Assembly: GCA_003614675.1 (NCBI GenBank)
Contig: ML002235.1
Coordinates: 1-63,437 of the forward strand
Reading direction: 5' to 3'
Source of the DNA: Dimargaris cristalligena
Taxonomy: Eukaryota
Length of the DNA stretch: 63,437 nt
The position numbers were made by a program, and so were the translations under genes. The first letter of the stretch is position 1. Each line of letters opens with the position of its first letter. The notes below the pieces were generated by a model. That model was not told where the DNA came from and did not search any database. It saw only the letters and a program-made list of their open reading frames with translations. This document shows positions 7,948-55,344 of this stretch, one piece after another.

Positions 7948-9346
7948 TTCGATGCATCTCTTCTATTTGTATGCTTTAGCATAGTTTCCCAGGCGTGCCT
8001 ACCCGCATACCCACCCCCCGTTTAGTATCGTTTGTATGGCTAAGCGAGACACCCCCCCCTCTGCTTTCTAGCCATTATCAGAGCACAACATCTACGAAAG
8101 GCTTTATAGTTTTTCCCGGTATACTTCTGTTCTTCAGTCCTACGCTCGAGTCAATGTTTAAGTATTGAATCAGAATATGCTTAACTCAGCAAACATTTTT
8201 TTTAATACACAATTAGTGTAATTGAATCCCTTATATTGTAAGCAGGCAATTAAATGGGTAATCGTTAAACATAGCATAACTTTAAAATCTAAAATGCTCA
8301 ACCATTGGGAATAGTGGTGATAGTGGGAAGGAGGTATACAAGTCATAAGAAAAGCAATAATAGAATGCCGGAATAACCTCATGTATGGGTAGGTATACGG
8401 CCCCGAACTCAGATCATAGACCAATGCTATCAGATAATGAACCTATTCGGTATACTAGCACGGCTTAAAAGTCAGTAATTAGCCATGCTCTTATTTCAGC
8501 ATCCGCCCATGCGTCCTCTTCTGGTCTAGTGAGTGTTGAGAAATATGTCCTTATGGGTCTACTATTCTCTCCTGTTGCTGACCAATTACGTTAGTTTATT
8601 TAGTTATCCTTTGGCCATTCGTTTTAACCATTTAAAATACGCCCTGCCGACTACACTATTCAATAAAACTAACCACTTAGAGGCATACGCCATCCTCTAG
8701 CTGATTTCCTCCTTTCTATACAACTTTATTGATACATCTTTAGTGTTTCCAACAGATCAGGTATTAATTTTCTAAGCCTGACCAGTCTAGTTCTGTATAA
8801 TAACAATGGATCCGAAATAGGGATTAAAGGACCCATAGATGAACCTAGAAAGCATGAAAGCCAAATTGTGTTCGGAATCTATCGCTCCCGTCCCACGCAG
8901 GTTCATTATTCAGGCCAATTGGCACATGTCTAGGGCATCACTTTACGTTGATTATTATTTTATAAATCTATAACTAACCCAATTATACTAACCATGGGCA
9001 GTTACCATTGTCAATTGCGGCTATCTCTCTCCTAGGACATTCTTTTGAATGGCTATAGGTAGACCCCAAATGGTAATGGTGGAAAGGCAAACCCAAGGCA
9101 AAAATACACCAACACTCTCAGCGTATAGAATATGACATTACGAGGGTTATGATTCCCATAGTAATCGGGCGGACATGGTTTATTCAGAGAACCTGGGAGA
9201 GTAGGCAACAGCAGCAAATGAACATGTCGAACGGATTACAATAGTAGCAGATACTAGTCCCGTTTATTATGTCACTCGCGCTGGATTTTTGGCATCGTAG
9301 GTAGTACGCGGAGAGCTCTCCTACTGCCCGGTAAGGCATCGTAGTT

Positions 9347-9610
9347 TTAGCCTTTGCAGTACATTTTATGACTACTGATAGTTTTCGTTGGGTAATAGCC
9401 ATGGCATATGCTGCACTGAGTCTCGCTAACTTTTACAGGTTGTTGGGAATAGTTGCGAGGAAGGGAATGGACTGAGCCCAGCTGGTTGGTTGCCGACGAA
9501 ATCTCGCCGTGGGTTGAATCCATGCCGATGGGCTGGGCGTGGTTGAACGGGAGGGCAGATAGGCTAACAAGGGCGGTGGCCAGGGTGACCAGAATAATGG
9601 AGTGATTCAT
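9347..9610 (-). CDS. 87-aa secreted protein with C-terminal C-x2-C-x11-H-x3-C zinc finger; candidate effector
   Basis: CCCACCATG start; hydrophobic signal peptide MNHSIILVTLATALVSLSALPFNHA; CSICHGYYPTKTISSHKMYC at the C-terminus; TATAAATAG about 95 nt upstream. Confidence 0.75.
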   Translation of the reverse strand: MNHSIILVTLATALVSLSALPFNHAQPIGMDSTHGEISSATNQLGSVHSLPRNYSQQPVKVSETQCSICHGYYPTKTISSHKMYCKG

Positions 9611-9703
9611 GGTGGGCGGTACCTGTGGAGGTCGGGGAGGTTGGCTGGGTTCAATAGCAAATAAGAGCAGTATGAGTTTGGAGATGATGCGGAAATGCAC
9701 CCT

Positions 9704-9712
9704 CTATTTATA
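9704..9712 (-). promoter_or_regulatory. TATA box of the small secreted zinc-finger gene
   Basis: TATAAATAG on the minus strand about 95 nt upstream of ATG 9610. Confidence 0.55.
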
Positions 9713-11664
9713 GGGGTTGGCTAGACCTGAGAACGAGAGGGAAAGGGGGAAGCGACAGTCCCAATGTAGTCCCGACTTTTTAAGCGACCCACTCACCTGT
9801 ATTTTATGTTGATATGGCTACTCAACTTTGAATTTCTATACATGTGGGGTTAACCATTGTTATGTCTGTGGCCCAAGTGTCTTGCTGGCTGTTTGGGGGG
9901 GGGTATGCACTACTGTATTTTCAAGAAACCAACGTGTTTTCATCTATAGTTTAAAGCGAGGAACTCCTCTCTCTTTTGCAATCTCAATCCCAACTAATTA
10001 AACAAGGGTGTACTTGACATTCCATCATAGTAGAGCAACTCGCCTCCACCTTTTTAGGACTGTGGAAGGTAGCTTATCCGGTGTAGTTTAAGCAGGCCCG
10101 TCGGCTTTCCATTCCTTTCCGCATCCATGGACTCTTTGATTGGGGCGACTTGCGTTTGATGCAGTGTGGGTACTCCCAAAGAATGCCACAAGAAAAGTTT
10201 GTACGGCCATGTCCATTCCCATGCACTATATAGTCTGTTTAGGTTTGGAAAACGTAATTAAGCTGAGTGCCCTATTGAAATCTTATGGTCAAAACAAAGG
10301 AGTATCTCATTCACTAGATTCCCCATCTCTGGAAATACAGGTGGCTTGTTCATTGGCTTACATGTGGCCTGCCTTGAAGGTGATTTCAACAGGAAAAAAA
10401 TACCCCTTTGGCCCATGTATGGGTCTAAATTTGAGTCACTGGTAAACATGGTTGATTAGTTGCTCAATAATATAGCTAGGATTTGAATTGTCGAGATTCT
10501 AGAACCACAGAAAATCGGCCTATATGTACATACGTATACTGACATTTACATTCAGACACTAGCCAGACCCTCTTCACCTAATATTGATAGGAAAAGACAC
10601 CCCCATTGGTGATGCCATTGTATCACTCCTTTTATGTTAGAGTTTGCACTATAGTGGTTTATGTAAGTACTCTTAGAAGGTCCATTTTGGAAAAATATGC
10701 AGCTTGTATAATACACCCGTATTTCCCAAGAAACCTTAGGAACCATGCTCTATACTCCTTTATCATTAGCACCCTTATCTTTTTGACCCTTCCCTTCGTG
10801 TAACGGTACTGAGTAATTCACCCATGGCGATTCATGGGATGGGGGACATACCATATGCCCCACTTAGAAAGTCGATACCAGACTGGCCCGACAGCCAAGG
10901 CAAATGGGCCGCGAATGCTTTTCCTTCCGAAGGCGTGACACAACAAGAGGTGCATGCGTTTTCCAAATTGGGACAAGTAAGTCTGAAATTGACTAGTAAA
11001 CAAGCCCAAGTTGACAGACCAAAACATTTAGAACGCAAACCCACTTAGTCCTTTGTATCAGCCGTTGTGTATATCTTTTGAAGAATCAATTAAAGCCCCT
11101 AGTTTAGAGTCGGCTTCATAGTAACTATCAAGCTAAGCTGCTAAACCGAAATTTAACCGACATGTTTCCCCCCAGTTCACCATACATTCTCCCCAAAACA
11201 CTGTCAAACAGAGTGCTCCCGGAGCTGATTTATTCAACAGCCATCAACCATTAGCTCGAAAAGAAGACAGTGAATTACACTCACAATGGTGTATTTACTA
11301 CAGGTCTCTGCGCGGAAGTGTTTTTAGGCCAGCTGCTATTCATCTGGTCAGCCTGAATTTAAATAAATGGCCCGGGCCTAGACTATGCTAATATTGGGAA
11401 CCCCAATTATTAGTTGCTATGGATGGTCTCGGGTGAGTGACTATCCTGAACTGATAATATACGAGGCCAATTTAACTAACCTACGTAGGATTTTAAATTA
11501 AATGTTCATGTGTGTCGTGGAGTTAAGCCCTGGTGAATGACGGGAGACTTACTCCTAGAAGGAGCGACCTTCAGAGGATGCTTGGACTAGGGAGCTTGAT
11601 GTCCTTTCTTAAATAGTAATAGTGGCAGATATCAAATATACGGACGAGTTAACTAAGTAATGCC

Positions 11665-12181
11665 TATAGGAACCGGTTAGGCTTTATATAGTTAGGCAGA
11701 CCAAAGATAAACGTGCCGAACCGGAACAGAACATATTGGAAGATATTACGGAGGGACACCCTGGAGAAGGTGGGATGGGTATCACTACTGGGGTCAACCC
11801 AGAACCGACTTCCGCAGTCGGGCTAGGGTAATAGCCCCACTTCATAATAACAAAGACTACCTACTCGGCCTCTTCGACCATTTGGTTACCTCAACCTCCG
11901 ATATAAAAAGGAAGGATAGTTCAGCATATCATTAGCCTCCAGATGACCATTGTCCCCATTTGTCCAGAACCTTTACACGTTTTACAATCGCCCAACTCTT
12001 TTACTAAATGTATTAATAAGTTCTAGTATATTAGTTAGAAACACTCGCTACTCTCGTTTACCAATACTTACACGCTTCCTCGCAGGTACTCTATACCATA
12101 TTTGGGTCTACAGAGTATGGACACCTGGGTTATCACTAAGCCGTAGTCCTGGAACAAGCCGCGCCGGTATTCATTCCTACA
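11665..12181 (+). mobile_element. Possible solo LTR (different family from the 34.6/41.4 kb repeats)
   Basis: 517 bp bounded by TATAGGAA...TTCCTACA (8-bp inverted termini, one G-to-A change from TGTAGGAA); internal TATAAAAAG at about 11902; no convincing ORF; no TSD found. Confidence 0.4.
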
Positions 12182-12738
12182 CCAGCTAAGCTTTGATATC
12201 GCCAGCTCCAACCTAGATTCCCCCTATCGCAAATTTACTTATTGTACAATGGTATAGGTGTTGGAAATGCATTCCCCCCCCCCCGAGTGCCATTTACTGT
12301 ATTGGACTATTGGAGCGATCTTATTGGCCCAAATTACCTCTAATAAATACTATCGCGATGAGCTTAATTCTCATCTTGCGGTTCTTTCCTACTTCTATCT
12401 ATTTGTGACATAAGCTTTATTATCAATCTCGGATTATCATCTAAGAGAGAACTTGCGGTTATTCCAACAATAGGTGAGTCAATTCGGGTTGTCTATGTAT
12501 TGGGTTTATAAGCAAAGCGTGGCCCAACATTATACAAATTTGAATGAGCTAGCAAAGTTCAATTAGGGGATGTGTTTTTATTCTTAATTTATTGGGTTTG
12601 ATCTAATAAACGGGGTTTTCGTTGTACAGCTGGGTCGAACTAATCCCATATCGAAACATAGTATGGGTCAGGGTTCACCCGTTCAAATGGAATCATCTCA
12701 AAATACAGGCACGATAAATACTAGGGCAATAATCCGGG

Positions 12739-36317: not shown

Positions 36318-37984
36318 TTAAGCGGAATCCAGAGCGGATTGCATAAATCTGGCATTGGGGGTATTGATGAGGATCTCAGGAATGGGCCCAGCCAAGACAC
36401 TATCACTACTCATTACGGAGGGGCGATCACCCAATGTGCCCTTCATAATATCACTATCCACAACAAAGCCCACAGCATTATTGGCTACATCATATCGGAT
36501 TTTGTTACCCAGAGAATCGAAGGGGCACTCCGTAATCTCGGAAAAAAGCGCACTATTATCCGGAGAGGCCCCCAGGGCTGCATTCCATTTCATGGCGTAT
36601 TGTTCCTCGGTATGTCTAAATCCAAATTTCTCGGCACACAGTTGAATCTCGCGAACGAAGCTCGCAGTCTCATCTAATCCATGGTAGAACGGGTAGACTA
36701 AAGGGTTGATGTCATTTTCGACCAGGAGCATGAGGCCCAAGACGGATAGTCTCCATGGAGCCGATGTCCATGTATCCCAGATGGAAGTGAGGTAATGGAC
36801 CATGCTGTCCCATCTATTAACGGAAGCTAGTGTGAAAAGGGTGGCAAGTTGGACCACGTCAGCCTGTTCAGCCGTACACTCGAAACTTTCATGGATACCG
36901 TAGGCAGCATCCGCTGCGTCGAACAAGGTCTGCTTGGCTGGTGCCCAGGCTAGGTTAAACGCCTTCTTGAATGATGCAGAACCGCAGTAGCTCGCCAAGC
37001 GATTCTGGAGTTCCACCACTAGATCGATGTTACCATCGACCGCCAGTCCCAGCATAGGTGACATGGCATACATCTGATCATGGGTCAGTGCCAAAAAGTC
37101 CACCACCTTCCAACGGGTCCCCGCGATCTTTTCGGCATCTACATAGGCCTCTATAGCCAATTTTATTTCGGGTAAGCGCCGATTCTGGTAGGCATCGGAT
37201 ATGTCATCCAGTTTGGAATCAATGTTGTCATCATCATACGAGTCGGCAAAAGGGTAGTAACCGAGGTTGAACTCAAACTTGAATACATCGATCAGAGAGT
37301 GCTTTTGATCTTGACTGAGATTGTCATACTCTAGGGTATAATCACTCACGGTGGGAATTTGAAGTTTCATCTAAACAGGGTTGCCAATCCAGATAAAAAT
37401 ATAAGAAATAGCGGGCAGGGGATTGGATTTAGACGAATACTTGGGCAAAAATGGCTCTTCAATATCGTCGCAGTCTATACCGCGGTGGGAAATGTAGCTA
37501 GCTCTACCATCAATGCATTCCAGAAACAACGGGCGTGGTCACTGGATTTTTGTGACAAGTTGGAAGCTTGGTAATACCACCTAGGTAAACTCGACCCACA
37601 CAGCCTTCTGAAAGAAAGACCGTGCTGTATTATTAGTATGGCCCATATTCCTAACAACTTCCCTCCTCCGCTATCACTTACCATTCTGTTTCGATAATCA
37701 ACACTAAACTGGGCCAGGCTGTTGAATTGGCGCGAAACTGCCAGGAACTCATAGAGGGTGACAGTGTCAGTATGACCTGCGATGGCCTGCAGAGTCTCAA
37801 TAGGGAATATACCAGTTGGTTCTCTAGGGTGGGAAGTGGTTCGGACCATTGGGGGCACCTGCGGTTGGTTTTCTTGGGCGGACAGAGCTTCCTGGTTGTC
37901 GAGTGGGGTGAGCACGGGGCTGGCTGCAATCATGGCCAGCTGAGCCATCCAGAAAAGCGAGAGGGTAGATACGACAATCTTCAT
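36318..37984 (-). CDS. Secreted F-box protein, candidate effector; exons 37682-37984, 36318-37370 (about 451 aa)
   Basis: Signal peptide MKIVVSTLSLFWMAQLAMIAA|SP; F-box IFPIETLQAIAGHTDTVTLYEFLAVSRQFNSLA (aa 59-91); GTAAGT donor at 37681 and TTTAG acceptor at 37371 join the two ORFs in phase 0. Confidence 0.8.
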
Positions 37985-47956: not shown

Positions 47957-48823
47957 ATGGCCAACGACACTTCGTCACTTCTACTTCGGCGCCAACTTAA
48001 AGGTATTTCTACCCCTCGTACTTTACTCCATCTGCCTTATAAACCCGATGGACTTGCAAATTACCCGCCCCACCACTATTATCCGGCCGCCAGTTCGGCT
48101 TCTATGGCCAAAAAAACCCGCGCTACCGCATCTGGCTAAGAATAAGGCGACCATGCAGTAACCCCATTCCCCAGGGAATAGCATGGGGGCTGTATACGTC
48201 AACCGCCGTGGGGCAGGGGCTTACACGGCTGCCCAACATGTGGGGTGACTTCACGATTACTTCTACCAGTTCCCTCCGCCACCTTTCTTACCTTGTCCCA
48301 ACGTTTGCCTCGCTGCTATATTCCTATTATTACTCACCTCCCCACCACAATCTTCATTCAATCGGTAGAGCTCAACAAAGAGGGTGTTGCTGGCTTCTCG
48401 GCTGGGCTGGTCGACGATGACAACATCTACGAGTGGGAGGTGATGATTATGGGGCCTCCGGAGACCCTTTACGAAGGGGGCTACTTCCGCGCCCGCCTGT
48501 CATTCTCCCAGGAATACCCCGTCCAGCCCCCTAAAATGAAATTCGTATCGAGCATGTGGCACCCCAATGTGTACCCCGACGGTGAAGTCTGTATTTCCAT
48601 CCTGCACCCCCCGGGTGAGGACAAGTACGGCTACGAAGACGCCGGCGAGCGCTGGCTACCCATTCATACCGTCGAAACCATCCTCATCAGCGTCATTTCC
48701 ATGCTGTCCAGTCCCAACGACGAGTCCCCCGCTAACTTGGAGGCCGCTAAGGAATGGCGGAACGACTTCCCGCTCTTTAAGAAAAAGGTCCAGCGTATTG
48801 TACGTCGCTCATGCGAAGAGTAG
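47957..48823 (+). CDS. E2 ubiquitin-conjugating enzyme, UBE2G1/Ubc15-like; exons 47957-48002, 48369-48823
   Basis: LLLRRQLKEL, GFSAGLVDD, MWHPNVYPDGEVCISILH, acidic loop PPGEDKYGYEDAGERW, PNDESPAN. Confidence 0.93.
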
Positions 48824-53622: not shown

Positions 53623-55344
53623 ATGGCAAATAAGGGAAAGGGGACCAGACAGTCGCTTCAGGCCACGCCCTACAGCGATGCACCGACTATGCTCCCTGGT
53701 AGTAGTAGCGCTGGCAAACCGGCCCGCGTTAAGAAGCCCAAACCACCCAAGACCATGAACCCTTTTGCGCCCCCGACTCTGACGGAACAGGGCCAAACCG
53801 CTGTGGTCGAGCAGCCGAAGGCGGCCCCGCAAAAAAATACAAAGAAGAGTCGAGTGATTCCGGTCCTAGACAACCCCTACGATATCAAATGGTAAGTACA
53901 CGGCCCATAGCGAGAGGGGTCCCCACATCCCGTTCGTTATTTAGTATGGAATTTCATACACACACACACACGTATATATATATATATATAAACCCTGCTT
54001 CCTGGGATTTTAATACAATGGGAAGGGTTTGCTAAAATAGTCCATCTGATCTTCCGAATATTAATGGTTTTAATTTCACCCCCCCCCCCCTTTCCTTCAC
54101 TATAAAAGGCCGGCGGTACATTTTGACCGAATGATGCCCGAGGTCATTGATCAAGCGATCCAGTAAGTCCTGAAAAATAAATCTCAAGCTGCTCCGACCC
54201 TCCACTGAACTGTACTTTTAACCCTTCTCTTTAAAACAGCGCTTTCCAAACACTACTACAAGAAATATGCTCCACTGGCAGCCTCTGTCTCTTTATCCTC
54301 TTTCTACCACTAACCACCCCCCCTCCTTCCCTTTCGCCCCGTTCCCTATCAACTAGATGCCTCACGGAATGTCGCCTGTTAAACAAGGACCCCCAAGGCC
54401 GGGCGGACCAACCCATCCGCCAAAACCTGGACCCCACTCCCGACCACCCGGTCATCATTGCCTTTGGCCTATCCCGGGTCACCCGACTTTTAACCAACTG
54501 GATCCGCCCCCCCACGTTGTCACCGAAGGATCAGGTCACTACTGCCGCCGCCCCTCGGGGGAGGAGTCTCCCGGCTACCCGGGAAGCTACGGCCATGCCC
54601 AGCGATCCTAACGGTCCCACTACTGCCACCGCCACCACCACCACACCTCCTACCCCTACTGCGCGGCGTTACTTCGTTTTCGTTTTCCGCAACAACGATG
54701 AAACGGACGCTATGGTGGACCCCCTGGCCACTCTAGTTCCCCTCTGCGGTCCCTCTTTTAGTCTGATTCCTTTAGACCCCGCTAGTCGGGACCGCTTTCG
54801 GAAAACCATTGCGGGTGCGGGAGATGGGCCAAGCCAACTGACCTGTTTCTTACTGGGGGATGGTTTCGCTGCCTTTGATCAGTTTTGGCACTCCGCCCGG
54901 GAGGAATTCGCGTTTCCTTCGTTACCGTGGTTGGACAGCCTATACCGGGCGCGGATGAACTTGCCCGCTCGGGAAGGCGAAGAAGAAGAAGGAGGCGACG
55001 GAGAAGGGGGGGTACTAGTGTCGTCCCAGCCGCTGGCCGTTTTACCGCCTACCCAGGTGAAGGTTTTCCAAATTCCGGTCCCTTCGCCTCAATCGAAAAA
55101 ACAGAAAAAGGGAGCCAGAGCCCATCGGGAGAAATTGAGCCCCGAAGAGCGATTGGCCAACAGGGAAATGAGGAAGAAGCGTAAACTAGAAAATATTGCT
55201 AGCCAACCCTCCGGCTCCGAACCCGCCCCTCCTCCCAAAAAAAATAATAAGAAACAAAAACTAAATAAGGTGGCCCAGAAAACCGACGAGATACCGCAGG
55301 TCTTGCCATTAAACAAAGTAGGGAGTGGCGACGTCGGTCCGTAA
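53623..55344 (+). CDS. Probable RNase P/MRP subunit Pop3/Rpp38-like (L7Ae fold); exons 53623-53891, 54109-54162, 54357-55344
   Basis: VLDNPYDIKWP, IAFGLSRVTRLL, FVFVFRNN..AMVDPLATL, LIPLDPASRDRF, Lys-rich C-terminus. The exon structure is solid; the family call is from motif resemblance. Confidence 0.6.

Follow-up and report, generated by a model that had tools for sequence, protein, structure and literature searches.

A small exported zinc-knuckle protein possibly encoded by an orphan gene in a gene-poor gap of Dimargaris cristalligena

The closest known kind of protein to the one considered here is the ZiF class of zinc-finger effectors, represented by AVR-Pii of the ascomycete plant pathogen Magnaporthe oryzae. 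AVR-Pii (PDB 7PP2) is described as a small secreted effector of 70 residues, in which residues 20-43 are disordered and missing from the crystal structure (PMC9618136, PMC11213319) and residues 44-70 form a zinc finger with the ligands C51, C54, H67 and C69 in the arrangement C-X2-C-X12-H-X-C (PMC9618136). The zinc site is reported to be required for stability and for binding of host Exo70, and the ZiF family is described as comprising 10 tribes with proteins of up to 119 residues, only candidates with a signal peptide having been retained (PMC9618136, PMC11213319). Here we analyse an 87-codon open reading frame (ORF) of comparable design on the minus strand at positions 9347-9610 of contig ML002235.1 from Dimargaris cristalligena (NCBI GenBank assembly GCA_003614675.1), an early-diverging mycoparasite. 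The whole stretch of DNA that was analysed, positions 1 to 63,437 of this contig, is called the window.

The ORF runs from ATG to TAA, and its product of 87 amino acids (aa) falls into three parts: a signal-peptide-like N-terminus (aa 1-25; nucleotides (nt) 9536-9610), a polar, probably disordered linker (aa 26-62; nt 9425-9535) and a Cys-Cys-His-Cys (CCHC) knuckle with the arrangement C66-x2-C69-x11-H81-x3-C85 (nt 9356-9415). The original prediction, made from the letters of the DNA, had placed the ORF and the C/C/H/C motif at these positions, and as an observation it is confirmed. Its anatomy also stands as regards the signal-like start, the linker and the single C-terminal knuckle; the spacer, which it had called short, is at about 40-45 aa not very short. 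The reading we favour, tentatively, is that the ORF is a genuine orphan gene which the annotation lacks and whose product is a small exported protein with a zinc knuckle. The interpretation first offered is partly supported, in its anatomy; a minimal effector acting inside a host cell is a putative function. The evidence leans toward a real gene, and the full chain that ends in an effector role is unlikely.

At the N-terminus, the first four residues, M-N-H-S, lead into 16 that are uncharged and either hydrophobic or small (I5-L20; nt 9551-9598); P21 comes next. In a simple hydropathy test with a threshold of 2.0, this start scores 2.52 and is classed as signal-like; 'signal peptide' is used here in the sense of that heuristic. 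AlphaFold2 predicts a helix at residues 4-18, in a model of low confidence (overall predicted local distance difference test, pLDDT, of 54.1), and the (-3,-1) rule points to candidate cleavage sites after S18 or A19. The linker is rich in Ser, Gln, Pro, Gly, Thr and Asn, carries the sequon N53-Y-S55, and is modelled at a pLDDT below 55 without secondary structure.

The C-terminal end of the product reads C66-S-I-C69-x11-H81-K-M-Y-C85-K-G, and within the six frames of the window the pattern C-x2-C-x(9-13)-H-x3-C occurs in this ORF and nowhere else. Read directly from the translation of the knuckle, Y72 and Y73 stand at +3 and +4 after C69, I78 at -3 from H81, and P74 ahead of the putative finger helix. 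In the consensus of beta-beta-alpha fingers such positions are filled by hydrophobic core residues. The fold itself is modelled with low confidence: AlphaFold2, run without an alignment, gives a pLDDT of 56.8 for the 40-aa C-terminus, and neither this model nor that of the whole protein is usable.

The ORF and the ZiF proteins have in common a small pre-protein, a signal or signal-like start, a disordered linker and a single C-terminal CCHC site, all of which are predicted from sequence in the case of the ORF. The spacing differs: with C-x2-C-x11-H-x3-C, the ORF departs from the ZiF motif, which is C-X2-C-X12-H-X-C in AVR-Pii. AVR-Pii chains are also absent from the PDB sequence matches of the ORF at E<=10. 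Architecture and ligands are the same, the spacing differs and no similarity of sequence was found; the ORF is best regarded as an analogue of the ZiF effectors and not as a member of the class. The original prediction had treated fingers of this kind as intracellular modules, a premise that overlooks the secreted CCHC fingers published for ZiF/AVR-Pii; since this class is on record, the oddity of a secreted finger was overstated.

The strongest point for a real gene comes from the start site. The TATA box TATAAATA lies on the minus strand at 9705-9712, 102 nt upstream of the ATG (-102), the same 8-mer having 11 occurrences on both strands of the 63-kb window. The leader/promoter stretch (9611-9842, minus strand) is free of ATG from -232 to -1 and has a pyrimidine fraction of 0.61 over -100 to -1, and the start context cccaccATGA resembles that of confirmed genes. 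Both the TATA box and the good start context had been pointed out originally. We compared these features across all 134 ORFs of the window that begin with ATG and reach 60 aa. A TATA[AT]A at -150 to -25 is found in 22 of them, 200 nt of ATG-free upstream sequence in 16, and a purine at -3 together with C at -1 in 30. All three features are combined in only two ORFs, this one and the first exon of IPK, a real gene start. The ATG-free leader and the start context alone occur together in seven ORFs, of which three (COX17, IPK and PTPA) are gene starts supported by Pfam; the other four are an ORF at 54595-55341 with a strong coding score and no Pfam match, a 60-aa ORF beside an E2 gene, a 169-aa ORF at 37478-37984, and the ORF discussed here. 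Downstream of the stop, AATAAA is found on the minus strand at 9263-9268 (+78) and again at 9179-9184 (+162), in both cases as a consensus match only. We also considered an in-frame extension or an upstream exon, which is unlikely: the TATA box itself includes an in-frame stop, and no ATG occurs among the 31 codons upstream.

The principal alternative, a serious one that we rate only a little below the favoured reading, is that the ORF arose by chance in non-coding DNA, that its hydrophobic start and CCHC motif coincide by accident and were picked after the fact, and that no protein is made. As a null model we used 4000 first-order Markov simulations of the 4.8-kb intergenic gap in which the ORF sits (~7948-12738, GC 0.43), which yielded some 13,900 ORFs with 60 aa or more. 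Length speaks for chance: 49% of the simulated gaps contain an ORF with 87 aa or more, and in the real gap there are nine ATG ORFs, 63-87 aa in length. The combination of motifs speaks against it. A signal-like start is found in three of the 134 window ORFs and in 2.8% of the simulated ones. The exact motif occurs in none of the ~13,900 simulated ORFs and its version with a spacing of 9-13 in 0.065%, while any broad finger-like pattern is met in 1.7% of them and in four of the 134 real ORFs, one of the four being the genuine Tim10 motif. A signal-like start and a broad finger are found together in 0.09% of simulated ORFs, or 0.3% per gap. These figures are post hoc, the ORF having been chosen for being interesting; despite this, they make pure coincidence the less likely reading. 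The hydrophobic core residues at the correct finger positions and the set of start-site features argue in the same direction.

The coding statistics are equivocal overall. By codon usage the frame is the best of its own six, and its GC content at third codon positions is 0.61, compared with 0.61-0.77 in confirmed genes, amid flanks with a GC of 0.41-0.44. Its codon log-odds of 12.3 bits versus the local background is the highest among the 52 stop-free segments of the gap, and the synonymous-only log-odds is +9.3 bits. Several measures weigh on the side of a chance ORF. The 12.3 bits over 87 codons compare with 45.2 bits over 80 codons for COX17 and 41.2 bits over 89 codons for Tim10, and the coding score ranks 134th among the 808 stop-free segments of the window. 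For 37 real-gene windows the 10th percentile of the per-codon score is -0.005, which the ORF, at -0.029, fails to reach. This value of the ORF is equalled or exceeded by 15% of 106 other short ORFs, several of that 15% being true exons. The score is also unevenly distributed: codons 1-58 reach +22.1 bits (+15.6 synonymous-only) at a GC of ~0.59, and finger codons 59-87 give -9.8 bits (-6.3 synonymous-only) at the background GC of 0.42. The observed/expected CpG ratio of the ORF (0.71) is near that of the gap (0.66) and unlike that of genes (0.92-1.04); read as a CpG-island test for an unmethylated active gene, the values do not separate ORF and gap. In mitigation of the low codon bias, a 350-codon ORF in the AT-rich part of the window, too long for chance, is also nearly unbiased, with a synonymous-only score of 0.016 bits per codon versus 0.106 in the 87-codon ORF.

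The searches for relatives were likewise unfavourable to a gene. The exact 87-aa protein is absent from a collection of 15 billion proteins, which does hold the 79-aa COX17 and 82-aa Tim10 of the window (NCBI/UniRef). A phmmer search against 1.84 billion representatives gave no match at E<=0.001, and therefore no annotated protein contains the sequence; together with the exact look-up, this leaves the ORF unannotated and without a detectable relative. A word-index protein search was blank for the ORF product, and in metagenome contigs none of 140 pattern matches was confirmed. The best score in the ESM Atlas, 0.79 to PyrI_C-type clusters, was below the level of a lead. The tblastn check for paralogs that had been suggested at the outset, run within the 63-kb window, found none, the best non-self match having an E-value of 1.6. 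A search for RNA runs matching positions 8800-10200 listed none. Absence from the public annotation is itself weak evidence against the gene: the assemblies are stated to have been annotated with the Joint Genome Institute (JGI) pipeline, and since a term search of the main text of the genome paper finds no occurrence of the stem 'transcriptom', a missed small orphan gene would be unremarkable (PMC6784888).

Should the ORF be a real gene, we envisage the following. It would be a lineage-restricted gene, transcribed from its own TATA promoter, lacking introns and overlooked by the public annotation. The 87-aa pre-protein would enter the secretory pathway through its N-terminal signal peptide, which would be cleaved near residue 18-25 to leave a secreted product of about 62-69 aa, consisting of a flexible polar linker and a C-terminal Cys2-His-Cys knuckle of about 25 aa. 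The knuckle may wrap a zinc ion to form a small beta-hairpin and helix, and by analogy with the Magnaporthe ZiF effectors (AVR-Pii) the zinc may lend stability to a minimal surface for protein binding. As the fungus is a haustorial mycoparasite, such a surface would probably target a protein of its host fungus. A more specific proposal is that this orphan of about 65 aa has a UBZ/RAP80-like CCHC knuckle as its sole folded part, which binds to a protein of the host fungus (ubiquitin or another part of the ubiquitin system being candidates), and that it is the first effector with a zinc-finger fold outside Magnaporthe, one that acts between two fungi and evolved independently of ZiF; in this form we consider the idea very improbable.

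A consideration that weighs on any exported finger is that zinc fingers need a reducing, zinc-supplied compartment, that secreted proteins fold in an oxidising one, and that the CxxC pair could oxidise in the endoplasmic reticulum. The gene could also be real but have another cell biology, which we estimate as improbable. Its hydrophobic stretch could be an uncleaved anchor of a small type II membrane protein. Alternatively the three cysteines, in place of a structural zinc finger, could form disulfides or hold a different metal outside the cell, the protein then resembling peptides that scavenge zinc or buffer metals; Pra1 of Candida is an example of a zinc scavenger that is secreted by a fungus and has Cys/His motifs at its C-terminus. 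A hydrophobic region of 16 residues is borderline between signal peptide and anchor, the best cleavage sites are moderate (the A25 site has Asn at -3), and the number of cysteines is odd (three). On the other hand, the hydrophobic stretch is followed by D31 and E36 and by no positive charge; the positive-inside rule then favours an orientation with the N-terminus in and the C-terminus out, and cleavage is compatible with this. A labile metal site is also a poorer match for the spacing and core residues than a structural beta-beta-alpha finger.

The sharp split between codons 1-58 and the finger codons, together with the reduced CpG of the gap, would fit a fossil: a captured or left-behind CCHC-finger exon in decaying DNA, or else a true small GC-rich exon, the 5' two thirds, with the finger as read-through. 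We regard either version as quite unlikely given the surrounding DNA. The gap is long for this window and is flanked by two genes that converge on it with their 3' ends, a GH15 gene (plus strand) and an ORC6-like gene (minus strand), with nothing else recognisable in it. It contains no Rfam match, tRNA or notable repeat, and its DNA has no duplicate elsewhere in the window. Its six frames, read through stops (as X), give no Pfam match, and phmmer found no parent gene. The gene-poor setting that had been described for the ORF is borne out by these results. No usable splice donor precedes the finger; a short intron at this place was considered and rejected because the sole GT-to-AG pair, as read directly, spans 21 nt.

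For the favoured reading of an exported zinc-knuckle protein, the family of the knuckle is a separate question. In a hidden Markov model scan (hmmscan) against Pfam at E<=10, the sole model reported was PF23580 Znf_XAF1_N, the XIAP-associated factor 1-like N-terminal zinc finger, with ORF residues 63-85 aligned to profile positions 5-27 of 30. It scored 12.1 bits for the whole protein, 14.5 for a 40-aa piece and 15.6 for a 29-aa piece against a gathering cutoff of 27 (E 0.011-0.13, the lowest value being that of the 29-aa piece), and the score would mostly be expected from the four ligands alone. Sub-threshold as they are, this match and the one to the RAP80 finger discussed below count toward a finger with features beyond its ligands; the noise level of all family and structure matches counts toward a chance ORF. 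No curated family threshold was reached by the whole protein or by either piece, a further point against the favoured reading. The zf-C2HC_2 and UBZ models, for which a scan had been proposed, were not listed at E<=10 for any of the three queries, a range in which the HMMER filters remove most matches above E ~0.1.

The version of the original prediction in which the protein is a secreted UBZ4-type effector that binds ubiquitin or its chains inside the host cell is, in our view, highly unlikely. The x2/x11/x3 spacing is that of Rad18-type fingers, and UBZ4 fingers carry an H-x-D-x-C motif. The CCHC order of the ORF is the same as in the UBZ4-type fingers of Rad18, WRNIP1, SLX4 and SNM1A and in RAP80, and the spacing and hydrophobic residues fit the beta-beta-alpha fold, UBZ4 fingers being described as CCHC beta-beta-alpha modules (PMC4267625). 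Among PDB sequence matches to E=10, the sole zinc-finger chain is the RAP80 finger (residues 507-531; E 5.8, 9.9 bits, at noise level), with the ligands, the Pro, the Ile and the M-Y-C-x-G ending in common with the ORF; WRNIP1, Rad18 and FAAP20 UBZ chains are absent from these matches. The suggested UBZ4/Rad18-type likeness therefore holds for ligands and spacing and is not matched by any UBZ or zf-C2HC_2 profile, and we conclude that the knuckle has the ligand pattern of the CCHC UBZ-type, with family membership not established. In the FAAP20-type mode a conserved Asp is described as contacting ubiquitin (PMC4267625). The original prediction had correctly remarked that the Asp of the H-x-D-x-C motif is missing from H-K-M-Y-C, which contains no acidic residue; the putative helix T75-Y84 as a whole has no Asp or Glu, and this argues against the known ubiquitin-binding modes. 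UBZ4-type proteins are furthermore nuclear DNA-repair proteins without a signal peptide, whereas the ORF has a signal-like start. With no UBZ model and no acidic helix residue, a role in ubiquitin signalling is unsupported. The same applies to the proposed theme of secreted F-box genes in this region, which is unconfirmed because no Pfam F-box match was found in the window ORFs scanned (two selected sets of 13 and 7, and 65 out of the 119 stop-to-stop ORFs that reach 100 aa).

Finally, C66-x2-C69-H70 doubles as CxxCH and the remaining PDB matches, the top ones included, are dihaem cytochromes c and cytochrome c3 at CxxCH sites, but a c-type haem attachment site in a small secreted haem protein is almost certainly not the explanation, as the E-values (0.15-9, over motifs of 7-17 residues) are non-significant, no cytochrome Pfam family is matched, and fungal cytochromes c and c1 receive haem in the mitochondrial intermembrane space and not in the secretory pathway.

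The rest of the window is fungal nuclear DNA with genes for septin, GH15/trehalase-like, DUF726, MOSC, PTPA, ORC6, eIF3, E2, protein kinase, COX17 and Tim10 proteins. Elsewhere in the gap there is a second small coding-like segment of 52 codons at 11667-11822 (minus strand; +8.4 bits). Runs of 9-10 G (C on the opposite strand) at 9886-9903 and 12275-12292 were flagged as 18-nt inverted-repeat arms 2.4 kb apart and are probably simple homopolymer tracts. The 60-aa ORF mentioned above (47957-48136, plus strand) has an ATG-free leader and gene-like start context, and the UQ_con (E2) ORF (48182-48820) follows it after 46 nt. It has no Pfam match on its own, and the E2 gene probably has it as first exon, with an intron after it.

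An AT-rich island at 32-42 kb (GC 0.37-0.47, observed/expected CpG 0.44-0.53) holds two further ORFs on the minus strand. The 169-aa ATG ORF at 37478-37984 has a signal-like N-terminus, MKIVVSTLSLFWMAQLAMIAASP..., and lies in an AT-rich stretch; its 200-nt leader is ATG-free, its start context gene-like, its observed/expected CpG 0.56 and its synonymous codon bias negative (-0.17 bits per codon). It has no Pfam match at E<=1, hence no F-box, and its exact sequence is absent from the 15-billion-protein collection; it may be a second secreted orphan that is unannotated or has been modelled differently. Directly downstream on the same strand, the 350-aa ORF at 36321-37370 also lacks a Pfam match at E<=1 and is probably a lineage-specific gene, being far too long for chance.

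If the 87-codon frame is a chance ORF, it carries a caution: an attractive combination of motifs in a frame of this size is insufficient without a transcript or conservation. If it is a gene, it would indicate that ab initio annotation of a genome derived from single cells misses small secreted orphans, which matters for comparisons of mycoparasite secretomes. A design of signal peptide, disordered linker and single CCHC finger, so far described only for the ZiF effectors, would then extend beyond the blast fungus to an early-diverging mycoparasite that attacks fungi, with another finger spacing. Such a difference in spacing in a distant mycoparasite would suggest, provided the gene is real, a convergent invention of minimal zinc-stabilised effectors.

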